Positions 29,104 to 58,564 of a stretch of DNA of 64,000 nucleotides are shown here, one piece after another. This DNA is from Synechococcales cyanobacterium VAR_4_metabat_354. Its GTDB lineage: Bacteria; Cyanobacteriota; Cyanobacteriia; Cyanobacteriales; Chamaesiphonaceae. The position numbers and the translations under genes were made by a program. The stretch spans positions 116,116 through 180,115 of the forward strand of contig JANOQI010000046.1 of NCBI GenBank assembly GCA_031414775.1, in the 5' to 3' direction. How positions within the stretch are numbered: the stretch's first letter is position 1; each line of letters opens with the position of its first letter. Below the pieces are notes generated by a model. It did no database searches and was not told where the DNA came from. It saw only the letters and a list, made by a program, of their open reading frames with translations.

Positions 29104-29568
29104 TTAGAAGCGGAAAGCACCACCAAGGGTGACACTAGTACCACCATCAGCACTGTTAAAAGGAATGTCAACAGTACCATTCAAAGCAAATTCTCTGGTG
29201 AAGTTCCAGTCAGCACCAGCTAGGAATGAGCCAGTTGTTGCTGTTGCACCACCGCCGGTAGCGAAGTTGATACCAGCTCCGACGAATGGAGTGAGTGGTG
29301 ATCTACGACCTAAATCCCAGTCATAAGTAAGGCCACTACCAAAAACAGTACCGCCAGCAGGAAAGGTAATGAAAGGTCGCAGAGATAAGTTATCAGCAAT
29401 ACCTAACTTACTATTGATACCAAAAACGGAGTTACCATTACCGAAGGTGACAGTAGGACCAACTTGGTTGAATCCTCTACCACCAGCTTGTGCAGCATTA
29501 GGCATTTGAGTAACTGCGGCGGCAGCTGCTGCAACAGTGATTACAGTCGTTAATAAAATTCTTTTCAT
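29104..29568 (-). CDS. Small outer-membrane beta-barrel protein
   Basis: Signal peptide (AQA), amphipathic strands, TPFVGAG, C-terminal GGAFRF. Confidence 0.8.
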   Translation of the reverse strand: MKRILLTTVITVAAAAAAVTQMPNAAQAGGRGFNQVGPTVTFGNGNSVFGINSKLGIADNLSLRPFITFPAGGTVFGSGLTYDWDLGRRSPLTPFVGAGINFATGGGATATTGSFLAGADWNFTREFALNGTVDIPFNSADGGTSVTLGGAFRF

Positions 29569-34990: not shown

Positions 34991-37900
34991 TTAAAACCGC
35001 TGCTCAAACTCCATCAGGATCCGGCCATCACCACTAAAATTAGAAGAACCGCGCAGTAATAGCTGATTATCAAGCTGGTAACGAACACTATATTGTGGTG
35101 GATCCGAACCGGTGAGAATCTGGAATAGAGATAGCGACAGCTTGTCACTAACATTAATGCCAACTTCTCCAGCTAAACCCAGGGTAGAAGTTGTGCTACT
35201 TTTACTCTGAGAAAAACTGGGGTACAACCGGAAATCGCTTAACCCCAACAAATCCCCCACAGAAGCTTGTAAATCCCCAAAAGAACTTAGCAGTGAAGTA
35301 CCAGCTAAGCTTAGCAAACCATTGCCCACTGCTTCTTCACCAGCAGTAATCTTACCCAAACCATTGCTGAGTAGCAATAATATTTCGTCTTTACTGCGGG
35401 GTGGTTTACTCCGTAAAAATTCGGCATCATCTAGCTTCAGTTGGCTCAGCGGTAAATCTTTGATTGTTGCTTCAATCTGGACACTTTGCACTTGCCCTAA
35501 GCTAGTAGAGAAAGTATCACTGACTTCGCGGCGTTCATTTCCCACCGTTACTGGCAAGCGCGAAGTTTCTAACACTTTCGTCGATAGGTTGAGATTAACA
35601 TTGGCATCGGTACTACCATTGAATTTTGCAACATTATTGTCGCCTGTTAACCTAAACTTATTCGTAAATAAATTAAACTGGCCTCGAGGTAAATTCAACT
35701 TGCCGGTGGGTATCGGTCGATCGATCGTACCATTGAGATTCAGTTCGCCATTGGCCAGCAAACTAAGTAAGCCAAATTGTTCAAGAGCTACTTCTTCACC
35801 CAAAACCACCTTCAAATCTTGGAACTGTACCGGGTTATTTTCGTTTGATGTAGTTGTGCTAGATGAATTAGCTGTAGTTGTGTTTTGGGAGTCATCATCA
35901 CTACTGCCACTCTGGCTGGGCAAGATTACTTTACCCTTAGCTAGTTTGATATTCCCCCCAATGATAGGCTTGGTAATACTACCTTGTCCTAAAACTACAC
36001 AACCACTAACTCCTCCTTCATATTTGTCTTTGAGGTTGACCTGTACATTATCAAAAGAAACAGCTAAAGGCTGTTCTGCGGATGGAATTGGAACATTAGC
36101 TGACTTGTCTAGACAAGTTGCTGGTTGATTGAAGGATAGTAGGTTGTTAATGGGAATACTGCCTACCGCTGTCACTGGAGTATTACCATACTTACCGTTT
36201 AGCTTATCTACTTGCACTCGATCGAAGTCAAATATGACATTGCTATTGAGAGCGGTGACGTTATCCGAAAGTGAGTCAAACTTGATTACGGCATCTTGCA
36301 AGTTAGCCGATCCATTAGCACTCTTCCAGGTCAGATTTTGCTGATTGAGTCTACCTTTAGCTGCTAAGTCAACCTGACCACTACCACCCATCCACAGTGC
36401 CTGCTGTTGGGTCAAGACATCTAGCATTTTCATGCCTTGATCTTGGAGGTGAAGATTGAGAGAAACTTCATTGTTAGTTGGTGCTACCGAGGCAAAAGGT
36501 AATTGATAGGGAATGCTCCCAGAAATCTTAATCGGTGATTCACTAATCCCACTAGCAGTATTATTGGTATTTATAGTGTTATTTGCTACTACACCATTGC
36601 TATCAAACTGGAGTCGAGATTTAGCATATGAAAAATCGGTGTTGATGACCGGTACATCAGATTGATTGAACTTGCCATCAACAATTGAGGCTGTGCCAGA
36701 TAGCTGTGGATCGAACCAGCTACCACTTAGCTGTGCTTTCAGATTTATATCCCCAGAAATTTCTACTGGTAGTTGGAAAGCGGTGGAGAGCCGCTCGATC
36801 GGGAATTTTTCGACTTCGATTTGAGCCGCCTGTCGATCGATCCCAAAATCCCCTTTCACTTTGATCTTGGCATTGGTAGATAGTAAATCTAAAGCGGCTA
36901 AACTCAATGCCCCATTCTGCCATTTGCCTTGCATATTGACTTTGGCAAGTTGGTATTGATCGACAATCCACCGATCACCCTTGATATTAAAGCTGGCATA
37001 GGAGCCAGCTTGCGGTGTATCGCTAACGACAATTGTGCCAGTAAAATCTCCATCTAATTTACGCAAATCTGGTAGCGGGTTGTCCTGTTGCAGTTCTGAT
37101 TGAGCCACTTGCAATCGCTTGATTTCCGATAGTCGATCGATCTGCTCCTGAAGGCTAGTCAATTCCGAGCCAGCTGATTGGGGTTGTAAATCGCTGGCGC
37201 GGCCATAATCTCGATCGCTAAAAGGATTGATCAGATCGCTGATTGAAGAGATTTGAAAGAGGTTACTCACATCAGCTAACTGACCATGGGGCACTTGGAC
37301 TGTTACTTGATATTCAGGCTGTTTGCTAGTGGTGGATACCCGCGCCGTGATCAGATATTGGTTGCTGCCGCGCCGAAACTCTCCACCATCAACTTCCAAT
37401 AGCCCATTAACATATTTCAAACTGCTACTTTGCAGTCGATCACCAACTACATTACCAATGCGGGGCTGATCAACCACAATATTTTTGCCAGTAACGGCTC
37501 CACTAGCCAAATTAACGCTCATGCTACCACCGATCAAACCACTCAATCGATAGTTGTCAATTTGGGGCATGGGGGGCAAGAAGCTAATTAGTAAGCCCAC
37601 TGGAATATTTTGGGTGGTGACTTGCAAGTCATTGCCAACCATTTGACCTTGAGCAATGGCATCAGCTAGGCGAGCAGCGAATCGGAGGGGCTGATTATTT
37701 TCACCCAAATTCAGTTCTAGGCGATCACGCTGACCAGCTAAGAGCAAATTTAATCCCTGTCCAGGTATAGTTTGGATTTGACCAGTTAAATTTGGCTCTA
37801 GGTTCAATTTCGCTAGGCTAAGACCAGTCAAACTAATTTGACTATTCACCTGCCAGTTGGCCGGATTAAAAGAGTCAAAATTGCCTGCTATTTGACCAAC

Positions 37901-40900
37901 GGCATTGAGTTTCCCGGCTTGTAGCTGTTGACTCAACATACTATTAGGCAACAATTTAGCTACAGTAGGTAGGTCTAGCTGCTCGGCACTAAATTGCCCT
38001 TGCCAAGCTCCGTTAGCTACCTGTCCGGCCGTTAGCTGAATACGACCATTACTTAACTCTAGTTGGCCGGAGCCAGAGCCAGTTAACTGCTTGGTATCAA
38101 AGGATTTCAAGTTGCCACTTAATTCAAAATCGCTGGTCAGTTTGGCACTTTTCCAACCAGGTGGTAATGGTAATGGCAGTTGGGCGAGGGATACGGCCTT
38201 GGTTTGAAATTCACCATGCCACTGATCGCCAGTTAGTTGGAGGTTTTTAGCAACAATCTCACCACTAGGTAACCGAAAACGGGCACTGCCTTGTGCTGTT
38301 TCGACGCTGGGTTGTTGTAGTTGACCAGCTAACTGAAATTGGCCATCCATTTGAGCTGAAGATAAATTGTCAGAGAGATTCAAGGGCAACTGCTGGAGTT
38401 CGATCGAACTCAATCCAAACAAGCCCTGCCATTTACCACCATTGACTCTCAGACCCTGAGCCGTCATAACGCCCTTGCCTAGGTTTAAGCGACCATTGCC
38501 TACCAGATTCAGACTATCGGGTGTAAAGCGATCAATCTGTCCACTAGCTTGAAAATTACCAGTAACCGTGGCCGCTGACCAAGGTTTCGGCAAATCGGCA
38601 TCAATACTACCCAAGCGTAAGGCCGCTAGTGATAAATCGCTTTGCCAACGACCAGCCTGGAGCTGAAACTGCTTGGCGACTAGTTGGCCACCACCAGCAT
38701 TTTGCAGCTGACCGCTGCCAGTAGCTTGCAAGTTAGCGGCATTCATTTTTTGTAAGTCACCAGCCAGATTGAACTTACCACTCAATTTACCGCGCACGTT
38801 GGGAGTAAATTGGCTAACTTCTAAATTTTCGGGAGTAAATTCACCTTGCCATTTTCCACCGCGCAGTTTGACATTACTAGCCACCACCTGACCAATTGGC
38901 AAATGGAGAATGCCGTTACCCTGTCCCTGAATAGCGTTGGGAGTCAGCTTTTGAATATCACCATTGAGGTTGAACCGTCCACTTAGCTGGCCTTTAGTTC
39001 GGGGATTAACCTGACCCAGATCGAACCTATCGGAACTAAATTCGCCTTGCCACTTGCCCTGGGCGAGCTGGATATTTTGGCCAGTAATTTTTCCTTGACC
39101 CAGCACGATCGATCCATTCCCGATCGCTTGCACTGTCTCGGGGCTAGTCTTATTCAAATTTCCCGTTACCCGAAATTTACCGCTGAGCTTGCCAGGTAAT
39201 TTCGGATCGATCTGCGCTAGCAGCAGCTCATTAGTTTGGATATCGCTCTGCCACTGGCCTTGTCCGAGCCGGAAATTAGTAGCTTGGATGATACCAGCTT
39301 TAGTCTGGAGCTGAAGTTGACCTTGGCCTTGCAGGCTATCACTATTTCCTTTGGTGAGGCCACTGATCAGCATCTGGCCGCTGACTTGCCCCGCTAAGAA
39401 AGCCGGTAGTTTCGGCGCTTGGCCTGGGGCTGCTGGTGCCAGATTTGCTAATGTTTGACTATTGAGCTTGGGGATCTGGACATTCATCCGCCAGCGCTCT
39501 CGATCGACATTCCCCACGCCCACGATTTCCTGACCAGCAACCTTGACCCGAGCCTGTTGAATTTGGACATTACCCTGAGGCGAGATCCGCAGATTGGCAC
39601 TACCGGGATAGGCTGCTTGCGGCGCATTAATCTGGAGGTCGGTGGTTAGTTGATCGATACTACCAAAAACTTGACCAGTGACACTGGTAAGACCCATGGC
39701 GATCGGCAGCTGCTGACCATAGGTTTTCGCCAAGACATTGGCCGGTAATTGATTGCCCTGGATATTAAAGCGGAGTTGGGGCTGCCCGGTAAGAGTGATT
39801 TCACCATTGCCGATGATGGCACCGCCCAAATTTGGCAAAGCCGAAATACCACTAAGTAAGCATTTCTTGTCTTGAAGAATAAAATTACTAGCAACTTGCT
39901 TAAACTGTAATCGATCGATCTGTGCCGCTCCGATAGTTTGTACCTGACCAGAAAGAACTGGCTCGGTGAGTTTACCCTTCAAAGCTAAGTTGGCTATTAC
40001 CTGACCAGCGATCGGAACTGGCGATCGAACTTTCAGTGCTTGAGCTGCCAGCGCTACTGGTACCGGGGCGATTTGGGCTTGGAGATCGTAGCCCTGTTGG
40101 AAATCGATGGTGCCAGCAATCCTCCCAGGTAATTGACCGTAAAGTGTAGTTACATTTTGGAGCTGCACGGCTTGGGGCAAAATCTTGACCGTGCCACTAG
40201 CCTGTTGAAACAACTGTGGCACCTGATTAACTTGAAAAGTAGCTTGGTGAACTTGAACTGTCCCCTGCACCACTAGTGGCTTTTGCGGCTGGATATCGAT
40301 GTTAATATTGCCATCTACTAGGCCGCTTTGAAAATCCACTGCCGGAATTTTCATTAGACCCCGCGCTTGAGCAACATTAAGCGCTTGACCATTAATTTCT
40401 ACATGCGTAGCTTGAGTAACTAAAGAGCTATTACCCTTGATCGCAATTGTGGATTTTTGATTATTTTTAGTACCTTCTAAACTATCAACTTGCCCAGTGC
40501 CATTAAAGTTGACTACCTGAATTTTGCCATCTTTACTTTGAAAATTAGTGCTCAGATCGGTGTCTCGAAAACTGATTGGCTTTTTAGTACTAAATGGCAC
40601 TACCGTGCCCCGGGCTTTCTGAATATGGACAGCCTGAATTTCGGTTTTTATTAATCCCGGTTTTTCGGGTGGTTGAGTAGGGATTTTCAGCCAGTTGCCC
40701 TGGGCATCTTGTTCTAAATATAAATCTGGTTCCAGAATAGTAATATCTGGCTTTAGTGTGCGCTGCCAAAGGACTGCAAGGGGGTCAAAACGGATGTTAA
40801 CGCCCTTAATGGCAACTTTACTGGCACTGGTTCGATTAGCGGCCAGACTGGATGCCCCAAAATTAATTTCGTTGAGACCGATATTTTGAAGTTGGCCGAG

Positions 40901-41125
40901 GCTGACATCTCGATCGAGAGATTTACTCAGTTCCTTAGCGATTGTGGGGGATAAATTTCGGGCAACCCAGGTGCTTAGTCCTAAAAAGCTGATCGCCCCA
41001 ACTCCCAGCACACTCGCCGTCGCAATACCACCAATTTTCCACCAATTTCGATCAGCAGGAGACGATCGATCGGCACTACTATTTTCTGGATTAGGGGAAT
41101 TGACTTGTTTACGGAAGATGCTCAT
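34991..41125 (-). CDS. tamB: Translocation/assembly module TamB (AsmA-like) protein
   Basis: 2044 aa, N-terminal TM anchor, all-beta Gly-rich body, DUF490-type C-terminus (SKPPRSKDEILLLL, YSVRYQL, MEFEQRF). Confidence 0.88.
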   Translation of the reverse strand: MSIFRKQVNSPNPENSSADRSSPADRNWWKIGGIATASVLGVGAISFLGLSTWVARNLSPTIAKELSKSLDRDVSLGQLQNIGLNEINFGASSLAANRTSASKVAIKGVNIRFDPLAVLWQRTLKPDITILEPDLYLEQDAQGNWLKIPTQPPEKPGLIKTEIQAVHIQKARGTVVPFSTKKPISFRDTDLSTNFQSKDGKIQVVNFNGTGQVDSLEGTKNNQKSTIAIKGNSSLVTQATHVEINGQALNVAQARGLMKIPAVDFQSGLVDGNINIDIQPQKPLVVQGTVQVHQATFQVNQVPQLFQQASGTVKILPQAVQLQNVTTLYGQLPGRIAGTIDFQQGYDLQAQIAPVPVALAAQALKVRSPVPIAGQVIANLALKGKLTEPVLSGQVQTIGAAQIDRLQFKQVASNFILQDKKCLLSGISALPNLGGAIIGNGEITLTGQPQLRFNIQGNQLPANVLAKTYGQQLPIAMGLTSVTGQVFGSIDQLTTDLQINAPQAAYPGSANLRISPQGNVQIQQARVKVAGQEIVGVGNVDRERWRMNVQIPKLNSQTLANLAPAAPGQAPKLPAFLAGQVSGQMLISGLTKGNSDSLQGQGQLQLQTKAGIIQATNFRLGQGQWQSDIQTNELLLAQIDPKLPGKLSGKFRVTGNLNKTSPETVQAIGNGSIVLGQGKITGQNIQLAQGKWQGEFSSDRFDLGQVNPRTKGQLSGRFNLNGDIQKLTPNAIQGQGNGILHLPIGQVVASNVKLRGGKWQGEFTPENLEVSQFTPNVRGKLSGKFNLAGDLQKMNAANLQATGSGQLQNAGGGQLVAKQFQLQAGRWQSDLSLAALRLGSIDADLPKPWSAATVTGNFQASGQIDRFTPDSLNLVGNGRLNLGKGVMTAQGLRVNGGKWQGLFGLSSIELQQLPLNLSDNLSSAQMDGQFQLAGQLQQPSVETAQGSARFRLPSGEIVAKNLQLTGDQWHGEFQTKAVSLAQLPLPLPPGWKSAKLTSDFELSGNLKSFDTKQLTGSGSGQLELSNGRIQLTAGQVANGAWQGQFSAEQLDLPTVAKLLPNSMLSQQLQAGKLNAVGQIAGNFDSFNPANWQVNSQISLTGLSLAKLNLEPNLTGQIQTIPGQGLNLLLAGQRDRLELNLGENNQPLRFAARLADAIAQGQMVGNDLQVTTQNIPVGLLISFLPPMPQIDNYRLSGLIGGSMSVNLASGAVTGKNIVVDQPRIGNVVGDRLQSSSLKYVNGLLEVDGGEFRRGSNQYLITARVSTTSKQPEYQVTVQVPHGQLADVSNLFQISSISDLINPFSDRDYGRASDLQPQSAGSELTSLQEQIDRLSEIKRLQVAQSELQQDNPLPDLRKLDGDFTGTIVVSDTPQAGSYASFNIKGDRWIVDQYQLAKVNMQGKWQNGALSLAALDLLSTNAKIKVKGDFGIDRQAAQIEVEKFPIERLSTAFQLPVEISGDINLKAQLSGSWFDPQLSGTASIVDGKFNQSDVPVINTDFSYAKSRLQFDSNGVVANNTINTNNTASGISESPIKISGSIPYQLPFASVAPTNNEVSLNLHLQDQGMKMLDVLTQQQALWMGGSGQVDLAAKGRLNQQNLTWKSANGSANLQDAVIKFDSLSDNVTALNSNVIFDFDRVQVDKLNGKYGNTPVTAVGSIPINNLLSFNQPATCLDKSANVPIPSAEQPLAVSFDNVQVNLKDKYEGGVSGCVVLGQGSITKPIIGGNIKLAKGKVILPSQSGSSDDDSQNTTTANSSSTTTSNENNPVQFQDLKVVLGEEVALEQFGLLSLLANGELNLNGTIDRPIPTGKLNLPRGQFNLFTNKFRLTGDNNVAKFNGSTDANVNLNLSTKVLETSRLPVTVGNERREVSDTFSTSLGQVQSVQIEATIKDLPLSQLKLDDAEFLRSKPPRSKDEILLLLSNGLGKITAGEEAVGNGLLSLAGTSLLSSFGDLQASVGDLLGLSDFRLYPSFSQSKSSTTSTLGLAGEVGINVSDKLSLSLFQILTGSDPPQYSVRYQLDNQLLLRGSSNFSGDGRILMEFEQRF

Positions 41126-41491
41126 CCAAATTTACAGCCAAATGACGTTACAACCTCACACATCAGTGGGTTTAAGAATAAACTACATGCCCAACTGGTA
41201 TTGAAATTTATTAGGAGTCTTGATCGTTGCTAATTAAAATAGCATTGACTTAGTCCTCTCTCCAGGATACCCACTTTTGGCGACAGTAACCTATTTTCAC
41301 TAGTTTATATCTTTTATGGGCGGCAGTTTTCTCTAAAGTATTACTACTTCTGGTAATGGGCAAATTCAGCCACATACTGCATTCTTGAGCTAGCCATTCT
41401 AATTCTGGTCTTGTTGGATTTTCGCTGCTTCAGTATTGAATGATGACTAGAATTTATCGTATCGCTGAATTCATGTTTTTTGCACAAGCCG

Positions 41492-41527
41492 CAAAGAATC
41501 CCCTGTGTTTGTACAGGGGATTCTTTG
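41492..41527 (-). terminator. Stem-loop terminator after secreted protein A
   Basis: CAAAGAATCCCCTGT / ACAGGGGATTCTTTG perfect 15-bp stem. Confidence 0.75.
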
Positions 41528-41591
41528 TTGATTAAGAATTGGCTAGTCTTAACTTATCAACGACAGATAGTGTTAGCCATTTGCCTAATAG

Positions 41592-42275
41592 TTACTTTAC
41601 TAAGCCAGGCAAGAACTTTAGGCCAGCAGAAGAACCGGTGTAAGTATAAGCCGTGTTAGTAGAATTCACAGTGGCGCTACTAGAACCTTTACCAGTAGCA
41701 TTGTGAGTAGCACTGGCTTTACCGCTAACATTGAGTGAAATATTGCTGCTGCTGCCGCTAGCATTTTCTTTAGAAGATTGACTAGATAGGGAAGCATTCA
41801 AAGATTTTTTGTATTTTTCAACAGTTACATCTTTGGAAGACTGTGTAGAACCAGACTTATATTGATTCTGGTTAGCTGCAAATGCGATAGCAGCTTCTTG
41901 CTGATATGTACCAGCAGCAGTGTATTCATGAGAATTCTGTTCAGCTGTATGCATTGTAGTAGCTGCGTAACCAAAGCTTACCGGGGTGCTGAAACCATCA
42001 GCATTAGCTGTAGTGCCATTTTTGCTGCTAGAAGAATTAGCCTTGGCTGAGGTTTCGCCAGTGGCGACAGCTGCCGAAAGTTCACTAATGCCAGTACCAC
42101 TACCACTAGCATTGCCACCAGGAGTAATGGAGAACTGACCTTGAGTGTCAGAGTGCTTGTTGAATTTGATTGATACAGCAGCAGCAGTAGAACCAGTGTC
42201 AGCTAAGGCAGCGATGGGGCTGAAGATAGCGCCAGCAGCAATAACGATCAAAGCAATTTTAGTAGAGAAAGACAT
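41592..42275 (-). CDS. Secreted Ser/Thr/Ala-rich protein A (paralog of 45457-46137)
   Basis: Sec signal (ALA-DTG), no Cys, near-identical N-terminal domain to the paralog. Confidence 0.85.
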   Translation of the reverse strand: MSFSTKIALIVIAAGAIFSPIAALADTGSTAAAVSIKFNKHSDTQGQFSITPGGNASGSGTGISELSAAVATGETSAKANSSSSKNGTTANADGFSTPVSFGYAATTMHTAEQNSHEYTAAGTYQQEAAIAFAANQNQYKSGSTQSSKDVTVEKYKKSLNASLSSQSSKENASGSSSNISLNVSGKASATHNATGKGSSSATVNSTNTAYTYTGSSAGLKFLPGLVK

Positions 42276-42842
42276 GATTTTTATGTTCCTAGTTTTCAGT
42301 AAGTAATTGTGTGTTCTAGAGAGAAGTGTTTTAGCTCTAGCTCGTTAATCAAGCAGACTCTTAAAGCAATGGCTTCATCCTAGTTTTAGATTAGCCATTT
42401 CATTAGGTCTGGTTAGTGAGACTAACAGATGTTTCGGTGGAGTTTCTGAATCTGCTCACCGAGTTTTATTTTGCAATTTATTACACCAAATTTAAAATAT
42501 TTAAGGTGTAGCTACTTGCTATAAAGCTCAGTCAGAAGTGATTTATTCTTTCCACATTTCTAATATTACAGGTTGATTTCAGGGCTGGCAATAGAAAAAT
42601 ATTTCTTAAGTAATAAGACGGACATTTGTCAGCAACAATACTAAAATAGACAGAAAATAAAAAATTGTGAGTTAATACAAATTTCGTACTAATAAATAAA
42701 CAACGTTCATAGTCCAATCTCTGAAAGCTTTGTAGATTGGGTAATCAAAAATCCTAAATGCTTGGTTTTCACGAAGCTAACAATGGCTTTTATCTATCAA
42801 TTTAGATTGCTTGAATAAATAAATATGTAGATGACCAATTAA

Positions 42843-42869
42843 ATACCCCACCACAAATTGGTAGGGTAT
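42843..42869 (-). terminator. Probable terminator after the 790-aa gene
   Basis: ATACCCCACCA..TGGTAGGGTAT imperfect stem followed by T-rich tract on minus strand. Confidence 0.5.
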
Positions 42870-42904
42870 GGCAATATATATTTTGGAATACAGACATTTT
42901 TAGA

Positions 42905-45277
42905 CTAAAATTGATGACGAAAAGAAACGTTAAAAGTATTGTCACGGAAAATATTTGCCTTCGTACCTAGTGTCCGACGAAAATCTATTTCCGCTGCATT
43001 CCAGCTCATATAAATCTTAGAATTCGATTCTGGATCGACGACAAAGCTCAGACTAGCACCAAAAGGAGATGTTGATACACTCTGGTCAAAGGCCGTATAA
43101 AAAGCCCCCAGGTTCAGACGATCATTGATTTTCCAGCCAACATTAAACAGTGTTTTACTTTCAACAGCATCTGGTAGCAAATTACCAACAAACTGCGTAC
43201 CGCCCACGGAAACATTACCAAAATTAGCAGTTACACCCACATTGACAAAACTTTGAGCTGATCGTACCGGCAGAGACTGAATGGTCATTAAGCCATCAGC
43301 AACATAGTTAGCATTGACTCCAATTACCAAATTGTCCCGGTTATTATCACCAAGAGAGATCGCCTGAGTAGCATTAGCAAATAGTTGAGTATAATGTTCA
43401 GGATCAGGATTAAGATAACCAACCCCACCCGCGCTAAAACTAAAACCGTAGGGATTAACGATCGAGTAATCAGTCCCGATATAGGCTTTGATATCTTGGG
43501 TGGTTTGGGGTTGCAGACCCACATTGAAAATCGTACCGGCAAAATACCGCCATAAAGTATTTTCAGTCAGACTAGTACCGGTAAAACTGATGTGTGGGTA
43601 ATAGTCTGTGCGTTGACGAATGGTTTCTACATCGTATCGATCGACATCCCGGTTATAAACCGTAACATAACCTTGGGCATAGGCATTTTGTAACGCCCCG
43701 GAGGTAAAGTTCACACCATTGAGATTGATATCGACGGGAACGTTCCCACCCTCACCGCCACCACTATTCACGATAACCGGTGCGCGGAGAGTTTTATAGT
43801 AATAGTCTCGTTCAAATTTTCGCTCAATGACTGGAGATAGACCGATCCATAAAGCCTGATGACTAGCCCCCGGCGGAATTCTCGGGTCATCGCCCCGACT
43901 AGCTGCTGAACCGGTTCCCCCTTGATAAACAGTCAGGCTCTGATCGGGAATGCGGAGCGCATTGGCTGCCCGAAAAAGATTGGGATTAACTACAATTTGG
44001 GCACCCGGTTGACCAGGAGCAATGTTAAGCTGAAATTTGGGCAAGACTTGCCCGAGGGCTTGTACCGCCAAATTAACTAGCTGATTGCGATCGCCATTAA
44101 TATAGTTGACAGATCTGATGGTGCGGCCCAGAGTTGATTCTACACCGTTGGTGGCAAAATCTTGGTTTAACCGGGTATGGTTCACGGCAATCTCGGTACT
44201 GAGATCTTCTCGCCGTCCCCCAGTCAAAATGGGAGGTGGGGCACCTTCTGTTTTGACAATACCCACTGCTGGAAAATATAAATCTAGTCCATAACTTGAT
44301 TTATTCTTGCCATTAGCGCCACCTTGAAATCCTGGTTTTCTGATCGCCGTTACCGATGCTGGGGAAATTACATCACCGAATTGGGAGGTCACTTTAACGT
44401 TAAATGGCTGCAATTTGCGTTGATCGATCACACTGTCGTCAATTGTCAGCCCCGGCAGATAAGTACAAACTCGCCCAGAATTGTCTAAACAGTTGGCATC
44501 TAAACTAATTTGTTGACGTACACCCAGTAGGGTTTGGGGCTGCGATACGGAAACAGCAATATCATGACTTTTACTAATACTACGCGCTCCACCTACTTCC
44601 AATTGGGTGTTGACTCTTAATACCCGGTCAGCAGTAACACTTTGAATATTCTTGGCTTGAAACAGTTGATAAATATTAAAATTGAGATCACTCGTCCGAA
44701 AATTCCCCGACTCATAACCAGATTTGACGTTGGTTGTACTTAAATGGGATACCCGATCGCCATTCAGCACAAATTGGGTTGAAAACGGATCAACTTCTTG
44801 CGGTGCTAGTTCCTGTGGCGTGATTAGATAACGGGGGTCTTGAGATGATTCCTGCTGGGGCGAAATAGGTGCAGATTTTAAAGGAACGGCTGGTGCATTA
44901 CTAGGAGTTGGAATTAATATGGATCCTAAATTGGAACTTAGCGGCCTAATCTCGGTACTTTGTGGCGATATAATACTTGGCAGATTAGGAATAGAAATAG
45001 AAGGGATCGGTATTGCTATTTGAGCAATTTTGATAGGGCGATCAAGATCATTTTCTTCCACGCTAATATTTTGTTTAGCTTCTCGATCGAATGCCCCCAA
45101 TTTTATTAGTTGGGTAGAAGATATGTCATCAAAGTCAAACAAATCCTGATTAGTCTTGGTTGCTTGCTCATATGCTTGAACACCACTACAAACAAATAAA
45201 GAATAACTAGTAACTGCGACGAAGTAATAGACCAACTTATGTACGTTCTTAAGAGAATCTAATAGTCGCAAATACAT
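42905..45277 (-). CDS. Large predicted outer-membrane beta-barrel protein of unknown family
   Basis: Signal peptide (VQA), Pro/Ser linker, CLDNSGRVC Cys pair, many amphipathic strands, C-terminal FNVSFRHQF beta-signal. Confidence 0.75.
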   Translation of the reverse strand: MYLRLLDSLKNVHKLVYYFVAVTSYSLFVCSGVQAYEQATKTNQDLFDFDDISSTQLIKLGAFDREAKQNISVEENDLDRPIKIAQIAIPIPSISIPNLPSIISPQSTEIRPLSSNLGSILIPTPSNAPAVPLKSAPISPQQESSQDPRYLITPQELAPQEVDPFSTQFVLNGDRVSHLSTTNVKSGYESGNFRTSDLNFNIYQLFQAKNIQSVTADRVLRVNTQLEVGGARSISKSHDIAVSVSQPQTLLGVRQQISLDANCLDNSGRVCTYLPGLTIDDSVIDQRKLQPFNVKVTSQFGDVISPASVTAIRKPGFQGGANGKNKSSYGLDLYFPAVGIVKTEGAPPPILTGGRREDLSTEIAVNHTRLNQDFATNGVESTLGRTIRSVNYINGDRNQLVNLAVQALGQVLPKFQLNIAPGQPGAQIVVNPNLFRAANALRIPDQSLTVYQGGTGSAASRGDDPRIPPGASHQALWIGLSPVIERKFERDYYYKTLRAPVIVNSGGGEGGNVPVDINLNGVNFTSGALQNAYAQGYVTVYNRDVDRYDVETIRQRTDYYPHISFTGTSLTENTLWRYFAGTIFNVGLQPQTTQDIKAYIGTDYSIVNPYGFSFSAGGVGYLNPDPEHYTQLFANATQAISLGDNNRDNLVIGVNANYVADGLMTIQSLPVRSAQSFVNVGVTANFGNVSVGGTQFVGNLLPDAVESKTLFNVGWKINDRLNLGAFYTAFDQSVSTSPFGASLSFVVDPESNSKIYMSWNAAEIDFRRTLGTKANIFRDNTFNVSFRHQF

Positions 45278-45400
45278 ATAAATACTTCCATGAGTTTAGC
45301 AATCTGGCCAGAACAAAATGTCCACCCCACGAATCCAATTCAAATTGAATCGAACTAGGAATGAATATTTGTTCTCTTTGGTTTAATTTGGTTCAATAAA

Positions 45401-45443
45401 GAGCTGATAACACTAGTTTGGATTTGGCTAGTGTTGTCAGCTC
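45401..45443 (-). terminator. Stem-loop between secreted protein B and the barrel gene
   Basis: GAGCTGATAACACTAG / CTAGTGTTGTCAGCTC 16-bp stem with one mismatch, then TTTATT on minus strand. Confidence 0.65.
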
Positions 45444-45456
45444 TGCATACTATTTA

Positions 45457-46137
45457 CTACTTGACGATGGCAGGAAGAAATTTCAAGCCAGTAGCAGGAC
45501 CACTATAGTGATAAGTAGTTTTAGTTTCTTTGCCAGTGGATGCCGTAGAGCCACTACCAGTCTCATTCTTGGTAGCACTTGCTTTGAGGCTAGCATTAAG
45601 TGAAACGCTGCCATTGCTGCCACTAGCACTTTGGCTAGCAGATTGCTTGTCAACAGATGCATTCAAAGACTTTTTCTTGATTGCCAGGGTTGCATCTTTG
45701 GTAGATTGTCCAGAACTGTGGTGATATTGGCTTTGATTAGCCGCAAATGCTAAAGCAGCTTGCTCTTCGTATTTACTGGCGGCAGTATACTGATACTTGC
45801 TTTGGTCAGACGTATTGGCTGTGACTGCTTCATAACCAAACTCTACAGGAGCGCTCCAACCATCAGCATTAGCAGTAGTACCATGCTTGCTGCTAGAAGA
45901 ATCAGCCTTAGCTGAGGTTTCACCAGTCGCTACAGCCGCTGAAAGCTCACTGATGCCAGTGCCACCACCACTAGCATTACCACCAGGAGTAATGGAGAAC
46001 TTACCAGCAGTAGCAGAATGGCTATTAAACTTGATGGATACAGCAGCAGCGGTAGAACCAGTATCAGCGAAAGCAGCAACTGGGCTGAAAATAGCAGCAG
46101 TGGCGATAATTACAGCGATTTTAGTAGAAAAAGACAT
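45457..46137 (-). CDS. Secreted Ser/Thr/Ala-rich protein B (paralog of 41592-42275)
   Basis: Sec signal (AFA-DTG), collinear with paralog A with no indels in the mature region. Confidence 0.85.
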   Translation of the reverse strand: MSFSTKIAVIIATAAIFSPVAAFADTGSTAAAVSIKFNSHSATAGKFSITPGGNASGGGTGISELSAAVATGETSAKADSSSSKHGTTANADGWSAPVEFGYEAVTANTSDQSKYQYTAASKYEEQAALAFAANQSQYHHSSGQSTKDATLAIKKKSLNASVDKQSASQSASGSNGSVSLNASLKASATKNETGSGSTASTGKETKTTYHYSGPATGLKFLPAIVK

Positions 46138-46534
46138 ATCGTTGATCTTCCTAATTTTTGGTTAGTAGTGTATGATTTGAGGCAAGTGTTTTAGATCTAG
46201 CTCGTTAACCAAGCAACCCCTAAAAACGATGGTTTTTAGTTCCAATTTCGGATCTACCTTCGTCTTTAGACTGGTAGGTGAAGTTGATGGGCTGTTTTGT
46301 TGCAATAATTCAGAGCTATTCGTTGACTGTTTTTGCATGTAGCTGGTTGCTTGGTGTCTCTGTGCAGAGCCATCTGGGTGCTTCCATGTTTCAATACTAT
46401 TCACTAGCTTTTGGTATGGCAAGAGAGCAATCTGGCTTTAAGCGATAAGACGGATAGAGCGTCAGCAACAATACTCAGGCTAGCTAAAACCATTGCCGAC
46501 GAATTAAGTAAACTGAAAATTATCGCTATAAACA

Positions 46535-47227
46535 TTGCAACGCATCACGATCGATCCTCACCAAATCCAAGCTGATCAGCTCACCCTGACCACCGAGCAA
46601 CAGCATTATCTCAGTCGAGTATTGCGTCTAGTTCCTGGTGGACAATTTCAAGTAATTGATGGACGAGGTGCTATTTATCTAGCTAGCCTCCAGACTACGG
46701 GAGCTAAGATCTTAGAAAAGCTAGACCTGTGGCACGGTGAACTACCAGTGTCGGTAAATTTGGTTTTGGCCATTCCCAAAAATGGCTTAGATGATGTAAT
46801 TCGAGCCTGTACTGAACTGGGAGTAAAAGCAATTTACCCAGTCACTAGCGATCGAACTATCCCTAAACCAAGTAGTCACAAGCAGCAACGCTGGCAGAAG
46901 ATTGCCCAAGAAGCTGCTGAACAGTGCGAACGGCTAATTATTCCTGTTGTTCACGATCTACAGACTTGGCCACAAATATTACCTCCATCTACCGATCAAA
47001 AATTTATTTGTGCAGCCAGGGGGACAACTACCCATTTCATTAAATGTGATCTGGCTGCAGCTCCCATATGGGTGTCGATCGGACCAGAAGGCGGTTGGAC
47101 AAATCGTGAACTAGAACAGGCGATCAGCCAAAATTGGCAGCCAGTTTCACTCGGTTCTAGAATATTGAGAGCCGTCACGGCACCCATTGTGGTCATGTCG
47201 ATTGTTAGTAGCATCTTAGAGTCTTGA
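46535..47227 (+). CDS. rsmE: 16S rRNA m3U1498 methyltransferase
   Basis: HYLSRVLRL, TELGV, EAAEQCER, IGPEGGW, SLGSRILRAVTA. Confidence 0.95.
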   Translation: MQRITIDPHQIQADQLTLTTEQQHYLSRVLRLVPGGQFQVIDGRGAIYLASLQTTGAKILEKLDLWHGELPVSVNLVLAIPKNGLDDVIRACTELGVKAIYPVTSDRTIPKPSSHKQQRWQKIAQEAAEQCERLIIPVVHDLQTWPQILPPSTDQKFICAARGTTTHFIKCDLAAAPIWVSIGPEGGWTNRELEQAISQNWQPVSLGSRILRAVTAPIVVMSIVSSILES

Positions 47228-50727: not shown

Positions 50728-51108
50728 ATGCATTTCCCCAGTCTGGCGCGGGTGCTTACACGCACAGAACTCATCAAACTAACTGCTTCTTTTCTTCTTT
50801 TAGTTTCTCCATTAGTTGAGGCTCATGGTGGTCATGGCAACGAGTTTGCTGGCCAAGATAACCAAGGCGAACAGAAAAGTACTAACGTGCCGATCGATCG
50901 AGAAACTGCCCAACGCATCGGCATTCAAGTAACGGCTGCTAAAAAACAAAGATTGAATGTAGAAATTGCCGCCACTGGCCAAATCGAACTATTACCCAGC
51001 AAAAAAGTAGAAGTCACGGCTCCCATTAAAGGCAAGTTGGTGCAACTATTTATCCAACCCGGCAGTAAAGTAAATGCCGGTCAAGCTTTAGCGATGCTCA
51101 TGGAGTAA
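50728..51108 (+). pseudogene. Truncated heavy-metal RND efflux membrane fusion protein (CzcB/CusB-like N-terminus)
   Basis: AHGGHGNEF, RIGIQV, ATGQIE, VTAPIKGKLVQLFIQPGSKVNAGQAL (first lipoyl half) then stop at 126 aa. Confidence 0.75.
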
Positions 51109-51203
51109 AAACATGAAGCGCAATACTCAGTTCGGGCTACCTCCTTAGGCTCCCTGAATGCAAACAAAATATCTATTTAATTATTTAGCTAGGAATTGAA
51201 AAC

Positions 51204-51926
51204 ATGAAATCATTAACTATCGGAATTTTTGCTGTCGCTAGTATTGGACTATCCCTCGGTGCCTGTGGCAATAATCCTTCCACTAGTAGCAATAGTAACG
51301 AATCGGCGATTGCTGCCAGCTCGTCAGCTAATAAATTGCAACCAGCCGCTGCCCCTAAGAATATTGCGCAAATGGATCATGGTGGAATGAAGAATGGCAG
51401 GATGAATCACAACAATATGGATGTTGGGCCGGCGGATGCCAACTACGATCTGCGTTTTATCGACAGCATGACTCTCCATCATCGGGGTGCGTTAGTAATG
51501 GCTCAAGAAGCATTACAAAAGTCTAAACGCCCCGAACTAATTAAACTTGCGAACGGAATCGTGACCGAGCAGAAAAAAGAAATAGCCCAGATGCAGCAGT
51601 GGCGGAAGCAATGGTATCCGAAAGCATCAGCGACGCCGGTAATGTGGCACGCTGCCATGAATGGTGAAATGCCTATGACAGCTGAACATAAACAGTCCAT
51701 GATGATGAATATGTCTCTAGGTAAGGCCGATGCTGGGTTCGATCGAAGATTTCTAGATGGTATGATTCCTCATCATCAAGGTGCGGTGACTATGGGACGA
51801 GATTTATTGCAGAAATCTAAACGCCCCCAGATGAAGAAACTGGCTCGAAATATCATTACGTCCCAACAATCGGAAATTGATTTGATGACTAAATGGCGGA
51901 AAGAATGGTATGAAAATAAAAAATAG
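51204..51926 (+). CDS. DUF305 CopM-like Met/His-rich copper-binding lipoprotein
   Basis: LGAC lipobox; two DxRFxDxMxxHHxGAxxM repeats; Met-rich. Confidence 0.88.
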   Translation: MKSLTIGIFAVASIGLSLGACGNNPSTSSNSNESAIAASSSANKLQPAAAPKNIAQMDHGGMKNGRMNHNNMDVGPADANYDLRFIDSMTLHHRGALVMAQEALQKSKRPELIKLANGIVTEQKKEIAQMQQWRKQWYPKASATPVMWHAAMNGEMPMTAEHKQSMMMNMSLGKADAGFDRRFLDGMIPHHQGAVTMGRDLLQKSKRPQMKKLARNIITSQQSEIDLMTKWRKEWYENKK

Positions 51927-52142
51927 TTAGATAGAATAGCAGAAGGGGAATGAATGCTGTGGTTGTAATTTCAGCTCTTTGATTTGACTGTGGGTTAAAT
52001 GAATGATAGTTGTTTGGCTATCTACTAATGCGAGTTCAACCTGTACCTCGCCGTTTCGTAAAACAGTGTGGCTGACTTTGGCCGTAATTGAATAACTACT
52101 AGAGTTTTCTGTTGTTTTATTTTGAAGTTGGCTAGCTGACAT
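51927..52142 (-). CDS. Stand-alone TOBE-like small protein
   Basis: AGGAG 8 nt upstream; EVQVELALVDSQTTIIHLT..LKLQPQ resembles the C-terminal TOBE-like domain of CysA. Confidence 0.55.
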   Translation of the reverse strand: MSASQLQNKTTENSSSYSITAKVSHTVLRNGEVQVELALVDSQTTIIHLTHSQIKELKLQPQHSFPFCYSI

Positions 52143-52263
52143 TATGCTTTCTCCTATTTAGTTGATGACGAATGTAAACTTTGTCTGTTTCGCTGAGTAG
52201 AGGGTTCCAGATTTTATTTAAAACCCTCTATGTACTAAACCAAATCTTAATAAATAACTGTTC

Positions 52264-52413
52264 TTATTTTTTGGGCATTGGCATGGGCATATCCATTTTT
52301 TTACAACAACCACAACCGCCGCCATCTGCTGCAAAAGCAGCTCCAGTTGTTAGCATGAGGATGGCAGCAGCCGCGAACACTGAACCCACCAAAACTTTGA
52401 CTTGCTTTGACAT
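52264..52413 (-). CDS. 49-aa exported Cys/Met-rich putative metal-binding peptide
   Basis: Below ORF-track cutoff; MSKQVKVLVGSVFAAAAILMLTTGAAFAADGGGCGCCKKMDMPMPMPKK*; AGAGG RBS; MerR-type promoter upstream. Confidence 0.85.
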   Translation of the reverse strand: MSKQVKVLVGSVFAAAAILMLTTGAAFAADGGGCGCCKKMDMPMPMPKK

Positions 52414-52449
52414 GACTAATTACCTCTGAAATATTTTGAATCTGCTGCC

Positions 52450-52481
52450 ACTATAAACTCTCTAGTTAGCTTGAGAGTCAA
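52450..52481 (-). promoter_or_regulatory. MerR-type promoter/operator
   Basis: TTGACT-20 bp-TATAGT with dyad ACTCTCAAG-ctaa-CTAGAGAGT across the spacer; adjacent divergent MerR gene. Confidence 0.85.
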
Positions 52482-52501
52482 GGCGTACAAATGAATTACA
52501 T

Positions 52502-52948
52502 GTGAGTGAGAAAATGCTAAAAATCGGAGAGCTGAAAAAACAGACAGGGGTATCAGTTAGTACATTGCGTTACTATGAAAGCCTGGGGCTGCTGCAATCG
52601 GCACTCAGAAGTGATAGCGGCTATCGCTATTTTACTGATAGTGCAGTGCAGCGAGTGCTGTTCATTAAAAAAGCACAAACACTCAATTTGTCTCTAACTG
52701 AGATTCAGGAAATCCTGGATTCGCACGACCGAGGTAGGGAAGTTTGCTCAGTTGTCAAAGACTTACTCAATCAAAAAATTAATCAATTAAATACCGAGAT
52801 TCAAAAGCTTATAGAATCAAAAAAAAAATTGGAAGGTCACCGCGCTCGATGGTCTTCTTATCCGACGGATATTCCTAATAGCGAAAGTGTTTGTACTCTC
52901 ATTGAAGAACTAACATCATTAAGAATTGATGAAAATCAATTGAATTAA
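52502..52948 (+). CDS. MerR-family heavy-metal-responsive regulator
   Basis: KIGEL..TLRYYE..GLL..SGYRYF, FIKKAQ..SLTEIQEIL, Cys in EVCS and SVCT. Confidence 0.92.
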   Translation: MSEKMLKIGELKKQTGVSVSTLRYYESLGLLQSALRSDSGYRYFTDSAVQRVLFIKKAQTLNLSLTEIQEILDSHDRGREVCSVVKDLLNQKINQLNTEIQKLIESKKKLEGHRARWSSYPTDIPNSESVCTLIEELTSLRIDENQLN

Positions 52949-53023
52949 TGGTCCATAACATATCCACCTGGATAAGACTGAGTTGGTAGTAAGGTAAACG
53001 TTACTTCGTGAGTAAATAGAGTT

Positions 53024-55288
53024 ATGGAAGAGCTAGATCTAAAACTCAAGGGTATGAGTTGCGCCTCATGTGCTAACAGTATTGAGCGGGCACTTCTGAA
53101 TGTGCCAGGGGTAGTGGAAGGTAATGTCAACTTTAGCAGCGATCGAGCAACTGTACGCTACGATCCCAAACAGACTAATATCAATATCATCACGAAGGCA
53201 GTTGTTGATATTGGCTATGAAGCCCAAATCATCCCCGCAGATCTGGGCATTAAAGATGACACCGGAAATATACAACAACAACGAGAAGAACGAAATTTTC
53301 AGCGCAGAGTTTTAGCCGGTGCAATTCTCAGTATCCTGCTCGTCATCGGCAGTCTGAGCCATTTCAATCTCAACTTACCATCCTGGTTATCCCAACTAGA
53401 AAATCCCTGGGTACAGCTAGTGCTGGCATCACCCGTCCAGTTTTGGGTGGGTAGGGAATTTCAAATATCGGCATGGAAGGCATTTCGTCACCGTACCGCT
53501 GATATGAATACCCTAATTGCCCTCGGTACGAGTATCGCTTTTTTCTATTCACTGTGGGTGACGATCGATCCTCGTTACTTTACAACCCAGGGATTATCCG
53601 CAGCAGTCTATTACGAAGCGATGGCGATGATTATTACCTTGACGCTATTGGGGCGGTGGTTGGAAAATCGCGCCAAGGGTGCCACCTCCACGGCAATTCA
53701 AGCACTGATGGGGTTACAGGCGAAAACGGCGCGGGTAGTGCGTGATGGTGGCGAAATCGATATTCCAATTTCAGAAGTCGCCCTCGCAGACATTGTAATA
53801 GTGCGCCCTGGTGAAAAAATCCCTGTCGATGGTGAAGTTGTATCGGGATATTCAACTGTGGATGAATCGATGCTCACAGGCGAAAGTTTTCCCGTCACAA
53901 AGCAAGTCGGCGATGAAGTTGTCGGCGCAACTCTCAACAAGATGGGGAGCTTTCAGTTTCGGGCGATGAAAATCGGTAAAGATACCGTGCTGGCGCAGAT
54001 CGTCAAGTTAGTACAACAAGCCCAAAATTCTAAAGCCCCGATCCAAAAATTAGCCGACAACATCACGAGCTGGTTCGTGCCAGTAATTCTAGCGATCGCT
54101 GTGACAACCTTTGTAGTCTGGTTTCTAGCGATCGGTAATTTCACGCTATCGATCGTCACAATGGTCAGCGTATTAATTATCGCTTGTCCCTGTGCTTTGG
54201 GTCTAGCAACGCCTACATCGGTAACTGTCGGCATCGGCAAAGGGGCAGAACATGGCATTTTGATTAAAGGTGCGGAAAGTCTCGAATTAGCCCGTCAAAT
54301 CCAGACGATCGTGATGGATAAAACAGGTACGATTACGCAGGGTAAACCAGTTGTCACCGATACGTCCTCAATCCTAGATCTCGTTCCTAACAGTCCGAAT
54401 ATTTTAGCTCCGCTGGCTTTATGGCGATCGATCGGTGCGTTAGAAAGCAACTCCGAACATCCCCTCGCTGAAGCTTTGCTGCAACACGCCCGCGATCGAA
54501 CTAAGGATGCCCAATTACCGACTGTCGAACAATTTGAAGCGATCGCTGGAAGTGGTGTCAAGGGGATCGTGGAAGGGCGACAGATTTGGATTGGTACCCA
54601 ACGCTGGTTCGATGAAATGAACATCAATTCCTCGGTATTCCAAGCACAAAAAGCCGAATTAGAAGATGCCGGAAAAACTGTGGTTTTTGTTGCTGTCGAT
54701 GGTTATCTCCAAGCAGCGATCGCAATTGCCGATACTGTCAAACCTACCTCTACTAAGGCGATTCACACCTTACAGAAAATGGGCATCGAAGTAGTGATGC
54801 TCACTGGTGACAATCAGCGTACTGCCAAAGCGATCGCCGATCGAGTCGGGATTAAGCGCGTTCTCGCCGAAGTCCGTCCCGACCAAAAAGCGCAGACTAT
54901 TCAGACTTTGCAGGTGCAAGAAAAAAAGGTGGTCGCAATGGTCGGAGATGGGATTAATGATGCTCCGGCTTTGGCTCAGGCCGATGTCGGCATGGCGATC
55001 GGCACGGGTACGGATGTCGCGATCGCCGCCAGTGACATCACGCTGATTTCGGGGGACTTACAGGGCGTTGTGACGGCAATTCGGCTCAGTCGGGCGACGA
55101 TGGCAAATATTCAGCAGAATCTGTTTTGGGCACTTGGTTATAATGTGCTGGGCATCCCGGTCGCGGCGGGGATTCTGTTCCCCTTTACAGGTTGGTTGCT
55201 CAATCCGGCGATCGCTGGCGCGGCAATGGCATTTAGTTCGATTTCGGTTGTCCTCAACGCTTTGAGATTAAAAGGAGCGAAAATATGA
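53024..55288 (+). CDS. copA: Cu(I)-translocating P1B-1 ATPase (PacS/CopA type)
   Basis: [32 protein letters not shown] and MAFSS motifs. Confidence 0.92.
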
Positions 55289-55782
55289 ATCTTGCAGCAA
55301 TTATGGTCGGGACAATGCTTTCATTAGCGCAAATGGGTGGAGAATCTCCAATGCAAATGCCAGGCTCGTCTTCAGATCGCTCGTTTCGTCAGATCGAGCA
55401 GCCTTTACCCGTCAAAGTAGGTGTAGTACTTTGTGGACTGACGCTAGTTGGTGCCGAACTCTGGTGGTTTCTGGGACGCAAACAACAGAAACAGCAAGCT
55501 ACCCAAACTAATGGGGTACAAGAGGTACTAATTACGGTTGATGGCGGCTATCGTCCAGATCGAGTTATTGTTAATAGTGGTGAACCTGTGCGGTTATCAT
55601 TTCATCGTTTGGATAGCAATTCTTGTCTCGATGAAGTATTAATTCCCGACTTTGGGATTAGCACCCGTTTACCTGTCGGACAGACAACAACTGTTGAATT
55701 TACCCCGACTAAGATAGGCGAATATGCTTTTACTTGTGGGATGAGGATGTTTCGGGGTGTAATTGAGGTCAAACTCCATTAG
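55285..55782 (+). CDS. Membrane-anchored cupredoxin-domain protein
   Basis: ELWWFL TM, VDGGYRP, SCL, FTCGMRM; ATGA overlap with the ATPase. Confidence 0.85.
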
Positions 55783-55802
55783 AGATGCTAAGTCAATAAG
55801 GA

Positions 55803-57998: not shown

Positions 57999-58050
57999 AT
58001 ATGTTTTGGATAGTGTCGAGCTAACATCTCAAATTGTAGACCAAATGTCA

Positions 58051-58078
58051 TAACACCTGAAAGTATATTCAGATATAT
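58051..58078. promoter_or_regulatory. SmtB/ZiaR operator
   Basis: TAACACCTGAAAGTATATTCAGATATAT closely resembles the smt operator (ACATGAACAGTTATTCAGATA); lies between divergent ATPase and repressor. Confidence 0.85.
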
Positions 58079-58141
58079 AATGATTCTCATTCTTGCCGCT
58101 ATAATTTGAGGAGAGCTAATCTTCTTCAACAAATACTTTTC

Positions 58142-58564
58142 ATGACCGAGCAGGAATATTCAGACCAACTAGCCAAAGGCGACGCTACGCGAACAATTGA
58201 GGATACTCAGACACCTAGTTGTGATGATCGATTGGTGCATTTAGATAATGTCCGTCAACTGCAACTAGAAATTCTGCCAATGGATCAAGCTCAACGCCGG
58301 GCAGAACTGTTTAATGTCTTGGCAGATCCCAATCGACTGCGGTTGCTGTCTGTACTAGCAAAGCAAGAATTGTGCGTTTGCGATTTGGCAGCAGGCTTAA
58401 AAATGGGTGAATCGGCGGTATCTCACCAATTGCGAGTGTTGAAATCGATGCGGATGGTCAATTATCGCAAGGAAGGGCGGAATGTCTACTATAGTTTGGC
58501 AAATAGTCAGGCGATCGAATTATACCTGTCGATCGGATTAAGCTTTGAGTCCATCTCCTCCTGA
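58142..58564 (+). CDS. SmtB/ArsR-family metalloregulator (ZiaR/AztR-like); ATG at 58142 preferred over TTG at 58106
   Basis: CDDRLVH, LADPNRLRLL, ELCVCDLA, SAVSHQLR, GRNVYYSL. Confidence 0.9.
   Translation: MTEQEYSDQLAKGDATRTIEDTQTPSCDDRLVHLDNVRQLQLEILPMDQAQRRAELFNVLADPNRLRLLSVLAKQELCVCDLAAGLKMGESAVSHQLRVLKSMRMVNYRKEGRNVYYSLANSQAIELYLSIGLSFESISS

Follow-up and report, generated by a model that had tools for sequence, protein, structure and literature searches.

Curli (CsgA/B-CsgG) and Fap (FapB/C-FapF) are both built from small, Sec-exported subunits, often a major and a minor paralog, encoded beside a dedicated outer-membrane pore. The stretch of DNA analyzed here, hereafter the window (64,000 nucleotides from Synechococcales cyanobacterium VAR_4_metabat_354, contig JANOQI010000046.1, positions 116,116 to 180,115), holds three genes that seem to follow the same logic with other parts, and for which the original prediction, made from the DNA letters and their open reading frames, had proposed a surface fibre or needle system consisting of two secreted paralogs (subunits A and B) and an outer-membrane barrel. 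The three co-oriented reading frames were found on the minus strand exactly where they had been claimed to be:

45457..46137, minus strand: subunit B gene, 226 amino acids (aa), with a presumed Sec signal, a conserved small-residue beta core, a 106-aa insert and a conserved C-terminal motif
42905..45277, minus strand: predicted outer-membrane beta-barrel gene, 790 aa, whose homologues carry the precomputed Pfam assignment PF28436.1
41592..42275, minus strand: subunit A gene, 227 aa, a duplicate of B, with core (residues 26-103), insert (104-209) and C-terminal motif (210-227)

Our reading, to which we would give a probability of roughly 0.5, is that an undescribed surface fibre is assembled from A and B, with the 790-aa predicted barrel as its dedicated export/assembly pore. 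The feature per se is real and conserved, and the system apparently undescribed: literature searches, which covered subscription journals to a small extent only, returned no description of this gene pair. What would be new are the parts, since curli, Fap and chaperone-usher pili already pair subunits with a dedicated pore. Cyanobacteria also have the cyanobacterial tubular (CT) pilus, which, according to its report, is an 11-nm tubular, O-glycosylated filament (MrpC, PDB 9BTQ), the gene cluster of which includes an O-GlcNAc transferase, an FkbM methyltransferase and an outer-membrane porin proposed as the assembly platform (PMC12397347).

The window locus resembles curli and Fap in having small paralogous subunits with presumed Sec signals, an adjoining predicted pore and no ATPase seen in the locus, but neither A, B nor the barrel matched a curlin, CsgG or Fap family in Pfam and NCBIfam, and the pore is modelled as one polypeptide that forms about 20 strands and bears projecting domains, whereas CsgG is a nonamer and FapF is 12-stranded. 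The subunits differ as well, in that each seems to consist of a compact core into which a hairpin is nested, rather than of amyloid repeats in series. As in chaperone-usher systems, subunit genes adjoin that of a large outer-membrane barrel; however, no usher, chaperone or immunoglobulin-like pilin family was matched by the three genes, no chaperone was found among the 11 window neighbours scanned, and FimD/PapC-type ushers came only 41st to 45th in the structural comparison of the barrel (Z 9.3-9.8, versus 15 for porins). The barrel wall is most like that of Occ/OprD porins (OccD2, Z 15.0), yet identity is 8-12%, over half of the model, including both projecting domains, is left unmatched, and there is no OprD family match. 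As for two-partner secretion (type Vb), no family match was obtained and BamA/Sam50 chains aligned at Z 9-11 over a part of the barrel only, while for Slam/type XI there is an ESM Atlas feature match of 0.89 to a cluster of which 44% is PF04575, which is a lead only and is not accompanied by any Pfam match to the barrel.

The fibre reading draws on the linkage between the subunit and barrel genes, the subunits being of two types, “long” and “short”. Of 31 loci from genome contigs, the 6 without upstream DNA were dropped, and a same-strand subunit, by a profile built independently of the neighbourhoods, was present directly upstream of the barrel in 25/25 scorable loci (a long one in 24, and three short ones in the remaining locus, L031). 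A second, downstream copy was seen only in the window and in 2/25 scorable relatives, the two closest, so the “two paralogs flanking a barrel” of the original prediction is a local duplication rather than the general layout. More distant barrels adjoin secreted proteins of 119-214 aa, most of them starting with GEGG, and the linkage persists despite changes of order and strand, with subunits found on either side of the barrel and also in divergent or convergent orientation. Of 401 genomes sampled from the phylum, 23 had the barrel, and a profile of the short subunits (A3; 28 rows taken from distant-barrel loci, which makes it circular for presence there, though not for absence elsewhere) matched 21, all of which have the barrel. 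In a second sample, 401 genomes of the order, the short subunit was found in 45 against a barrel background of 68/401; after setting aside 17 genomes already used and one (G491) that is the L031 record, 26 of the 27 out-of-sample genomes proved to have the barrel, within about 4 kb of the subunit in 24 (the other two could not be placed, only two barrel candidates having been scored per genome), and the one genome without it had a short-subunit match that was a 44-position fragment. Related genomes in this sample are non-independent, and no P value is claimed. Seen from the barrel side, 44 of the 68 genomes have a short subunit and 12 a long-type barrel (long subunits were unsearched in this sample). 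Barrel homologues that usually lack subunit-like neighbours would have spoken against the predicted system; the neighbourhood survey found such a neighbour nearly always present.

Tandem arrays of 3-5 subunit paralogs, many of them divergent variants, also occur, and tandem paralogs with divergent variants are typical of pilins. Such arrays of short subunits are frequent in the window's family (G443:C276, G598:C345, G612:C267, G617:C179, G633:C261, G651:C101), several genomes of which also have a long-type barrel elsewhere, and dozens of divergent short-subunit variants (P0413-P0499) on short ENA metagenome contigs hint at strong subunit diversification. Among loci L067-L082, a gene of variable length encoding DUF4347 and RTX (repeats-in-toxin) repeats lies between subunit and barrel in several genomes, and in L070 and L072 an ECF (extracytoplasmic function)-type sigma factor gene is found just upstream. 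In one long-subunit locus (L030:6343-9820), both genes appear broken, the subunit by a frameshift near its start and the barrel by being in pieces, which suggests decay or an assembly error.

Named cyanobacterial carriers include Microcoleus, Arthrospira/Limnospira, Planktothrix, Picosynechococcus and Chamaesiphon. The system is not confined to cyanobacteria, where the original prediction had placed it, since barrel relatives also lie beside small secreted genes on Rhodobacterales plasmids: the profile search returned a named distant barrel from Rhodobacteraceae, which in turn retrieves 10 Cereibacter plasmid records, and the Cereibacter barrel is flanked by secreted genes of 169-174 aa and 121-123 aa. 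Plasmid pC of the laboratory strain Cereibacter sphaeroides 2.4.1 carries the pair (DQL45_RS22000-22010), and on a marine contig the barrel is followed by a secreted gene of 127 aa. In C. sphaeroides 2.4.1 the subunit-barrel-subunit trio is near a BLUF-domain gene, and in Cereibacter azotoformans (L092:1992-12298) it and a cluster of cellulose synthase genes (bcsA, bcsB, GH8) are divergently oriented.

In a quick tree of the barrels, those accompanied by long subunits formed one clade (100 in the Shimodaira-Hasegawa-like approximate likelihood ratio test, SH-aLRT) inside the short-subunit cyanobacterial barrels, and the alphaproteobacterial rows stood apart, the root being placed at the midpoint only. 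Long, short and Rhodobacterales subunits seem, by eye, to share the same strand pattern, with variable inserts at different loops, and in the genome-wide search the short-type profile did match a single long subunit (E 9e-6, signal peptide included). Synteny and strand pattern together make common ancestry of the subunit types likely. An A1-A3 profile match of 94.8% was discounted, as it is largely a match between signal peptides and falls to 2% once these are removed.

A and B are 67% identical (E 3e-76), and the prediction of a near-invariant N-terminal domain followed by a variable distal half is borne out by identities of 87% over residues 26-103, 52% over 104-209 and 61% over 210-227. Both are free of Cys and rich in Ser, Thr and Ala (together 45-46% of each), just as described, and the quoted N-terminal motif with FSITPGGNASG is present. 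The presumed Sec signals were judged by eye (a basic start, a hydrophobic stretch and an AxA-like site), as were all signal peptides here. Among 4545 candidates, 134 subunit homologues were recognized, and the architecture throughout is a near-invariant core, a variable insert and then the conserved C-terminal motif, with an insert length of 56-307 aa in the 131/139 distinct sequences in which both anchors were found.

How the insert varies is telling. In an Asn-rich subfamily of six sequences, the arms on the two sides of a central motif measure 130/106 residues (four times), 150/126 and 160/136; that is, arm lengths co-vary exactly in 6/6 members, though the 10-residue repeats differ between the arms. 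These six are related sequences representing about two independent length changes; for the frameshifted L030 copy, the reading frame was verified. In other long forms, the repeat blocks appear by eye to be in mirror order. The model of A is of low confidence (predicted local distance difference test, pLDDT, 48.6) and has a four-strand core, two long strands (100-125 and 188-213) and one short C-terminal helix (216-221); it weakly suggests a beta core bearing a long hairpin. Equal arm gains, taken together with the two long strands, point to a paired antiparallel hairpin, and the distal half of the subunit is thus likely an arm of this kind, the length of which is genetically variable.

The subunits were not matched to any known family. 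A and B gave no hit in the local Pfam or NCBIfam copies, 9 short subunits scanned against Pfam gave none either, and the listed homologues carry no Pfam family. In the wider searches, PDB sequences returned nothing significant and ESM Atlas offered leads of at most 0.91 with low recognition scores. Fold searches with the poor A model likewise found nothing significant (best E 2.5, best Z 2.6), and show neither a new nor a known fold.

The claim that the middle gene encodes an outer-membrane barrel is supported by a confident AlphaFold2 model of residues 140-790 (127 rows; pLDDT 93.5, predicted TM-score 0.84), with about 20 strands when the strand list is counted from the C-terminus. Two long strand pairs (220-262/352-376 and 471-496/533-570) each carry an inserted domain, one with Cys263-Cys271 and the other with a GGGEGG motif; at 25-43 residues, these strands are far beyond a membrane span, and parity would put them on the extracellular side. 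A helical loop is modelled at about 394-447. The Pro/Ser linker that had been pointed out is there (41% Pro+Ser over residues 86-146), and so is the Cys pair (Cys263/Cys271), which is, however, joined by an additional Cys30 in the presumed signal peptide. The GGGEGG loop was also considered as a built-in copy of the subunit, which was unsupported (E 0.069 versus 0.068 for the reversed control).

No family was recognized for the barrel in the local Pfam or NCBIfam copies (which do not include the PF28436 model), in agreement with the original prediction, whereas of 140 homologues among 7999 scored candidates, PF28436.1 is annotated on all 120 matches listed, including proteins up to 94% identical to the one in the window. 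A literature search by the accession PF28436 found no paper. With a barrel profile, 137 matches were obtained among 1.84 billion cluster representatives. Foldseek, which had been proposed as a check, returned only generic large barrels (TM 0.17-0.28, root-mean-square deviation (rmsd) over 20), and VIA-align ranked Occ porins and mitochondrial barrels first, with OccD2 as the best match (Z 15.0, rmsd 4.4, 280/651 residues aligned).

The same genome has a second barrel paralog (G000:C36:98633-100549, i.e., L038:8634-10550; 638 aa, with a signal that looks lipoprotein-like by eye), with similar copies in two genomes of the same genus. Neither subunit type was found with this barrel, whether close by or elsewhere in the genome, and both projecting inserts are missing, a combination that fits the fibre model.

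Beyond gene linkage and the barrel model, we infer every step of how such a fibre might be made. Sec would carry the subunits to the periplasm, and the barrel, being of porin size, would pass them singly, either unfolded or as narrow hairpins, rather than as an assembled tube. Its projecting domains could nucleate or hold the growing fibre, in which subunits would join via sheet-to-sheet packing of the Ala/Gly/Ser core, with the hairpin projecting from the fibre or lying along it; if fully extended at 0.33 nm/residue, the hairpin of A/B would measure about 17 nm and the longest among relatives about 50 nm. Since the locus was not seen to adjoin any ATPase, chaperone or usher gene, the fibre would grow by self-assembly, as curli and Fap do. 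The role would likely be adhesion or cell-cell and matrix cohesion. A wider formulation, which we put forward more tentatively than the fibre itself, is that of an ATP-independent appendage/secretion class of cyanobacteria and Rhodobacterales, in which a single-chain, scaffolded barrel of about 20 strands exports and templates a pilin of a new fold, the Chamaesiphon-related members of which have a hairpin arm of about 10 to 50 nm tuned by matched repeat gains.

Several observations weigh against the fibre reading. Without signal peptides, homology between long and short subunits stands at a probability of 2% (E 0.023 versus 0.18 for the reversed control) and the Rhodobacterales subunit pair reaches E 0.05-0.07, the monomer model of the subunit is poor, and the related genomes behind the linkage counts are not independent samples. 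Among the 68 barrel genomes, 12 have neither a short-subunit match nor a long-type barrel; in 5 of these the barrel is fragmentary, broken or located at the end of a contig, but in 7 it looks intact, including G273, which lacks either subunit type and yet keeps the projecting domains. The beta-signal assigned to the barrel holds for the window protein, which does end in Phe, but the same is true of only 55/114 family rows over 600 aa. Finally, the best structural neighbours of the barrel are uptake porins, which, along with TonB-dependent receptors among the best matches and the existence of barrels without subunits, would suit a porin-like transporter with the small proteins as its soluble lids or binding partners. 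We hold this to be improbable: the structural matches are generic (280/651 residues at 8-12% identity), the partner proteins, which are of beta type with small residues, have hypervariable inserts, occur in tandem copies and show no evident ligand-binding conservation, and no transport or catabolic genes were seen by eye to recur beside the loci.

A finite spike or needle, with a small ring of subunits on the barrel, the hairpins of which zip into a multi-stranded beta needle with its length set by the insert, would account for the exact co-variation of the arms, the mirror-ordered repeat blocks, the alternating polar residues and the barrel strands extended in a like manner in the model, and the weakest fold matches of the A model (none significant) were to long-hairpin stems of pores or tails. 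Most clades, however, have the same barrel with short subunits that lack a long hairpin, other clades have variable inserts at other loops, and the stem-loop after B (see below) would suggest subunit excess, so we regard the needle as unlikely, if still deserving of attention. Secretion of a planar coat, sheath or amyloid-like matrix with no discrete fibre seems a rather poor bet: it would agree with the Ser/Thr/Asn/Ala-rich repeats, the DUF4347/RTX adhesin-like genes often found between subunit and barrel and the cellulose synthase genes beside one Cereibacter locus, but the repeats are nested rather than serial and the compact core is fixed, which argues against a curli-like solenoid, and family scans of the subunits matched no S-layer or curlin family. 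A remote relationship to the CT pilus is very improbable, despite what the two share: according to the CT report, the CT pilins are secreted beta-hairpin proteins of about 150 aa in tandem pairs, Ser/Thr-rich, with an outer-membrane porin in the cluster as the proposed assembly platform (PMC12397347), and the window subunits are likewise cyanobacterial, small, paired, Ser/Thr-rich and predicted to form beta-hairpins beside an outer-membrane channel gene. The CT pilin has a helix-turn-helix at its C-terminus, where the low-confidence A model has one short helix (216-221). Among the scanned window neighbours there was neither an O-GlcNAc transferase nor an FkbM gene, nor any other glycosyltransferase or methyltransferase of the kind reported for the CT cluster, and the window system also occurs in Rhodobacterales and has an insert of variable length. 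Three PDB sequence queries at E up to 10 did not list 9BTQ, the presence of which in the searched copies was unconfirmed, and it was not among the fold-search results obtained with the poor A model (pLDDT 48.6). In 5 genomes, 22 regions around FkbM or O-GlcNAc transferase genes contained type IV pilin-like genes and no CT-like pilin.

Neither component of the system has been placed in a characterised family, yet the pair travels together through many cyanobacterial families, and with Cereibacter sphaeroides 2.4.1 among its carriers, the system is directly testable by knockout and cryogenic electron microscopy. If the fibre reading is true, mat-, crust- and biofilm-forming phototrophs would have a new appendage and export route, and the subunit would provide a natural, length-tunable beta-hairpin element.

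The non-coding part of the locus holds the following features:

46138..46480, minus strand: B upstream region, with a promoter-like TTGCCA-17-TAGTAT at 46422-46394 (consensus match)
45400..45444, minus strand: strong RNA stem-loop in the gap separating B from the barrel gene (z -7.0; 0/200 shuffles as stable)
42843..42869, minus strand: weaker stem-loop 3' of the barrel gene (z -2.4; 4/200 shuffles as stable)
42276..42650, minus strand: A upstream region, homologous to the DNA upstream of B, with TTGCCA-17-TAATAT at 42591-42563
41492..41527, minus strand: 15-pair stem-loop 3' of A (z -5.1), terminator-like by eye and absent from the terminator-scan list

B occupies the usual place of a subunit gene, directly upstream of the barrel gene, while the gap between the barrel and A is 628 bp, about 400 bp of which is homologous to the DNA upstream of B, and the promoter-like site is at the same place upstream of both, although such sites as a whole, being called by consensus match, are no commoner than chance (9 found versus 12.4 in shuffles). 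A was thus duplicated together with its leader and probable promoter, and because B-like DNA precedes A, it is improbable that all three genes form one simple operon: B and the barrel would be the usual unit and A a duplicate, probably with its own promoter. The stem-loop after B may favour subunit mRNA over barrel mRNA; a look through sequencing runs brought up no expression data. An Rfam search of 41100-46600 returned nothing at E up to 1.

The scanned neighbours are unrelated genes by Pfam/NCBIfam (TamB, an RNA methyltransferase, DUF7219, a pseudouridine synthase and MgtC). The 2044-aa TamB-family gene (34991-41125, same strand) lies directly downstream of A, an arrangement kept in L001 and not in L002. 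Further away, 29104-29568 encodes a secreted, Phe-terminated protein of 154 aa that resembles a small outer-membrane barrel, with no Pfam family and a sub-threshold NCBIfam match, and 50728-58564 contains what we take, from the look of the sequences, to be a metal-handling cluster (a MerR-like regulator, two P-type ATPase-like reading frames and an ArsR-like regulator).

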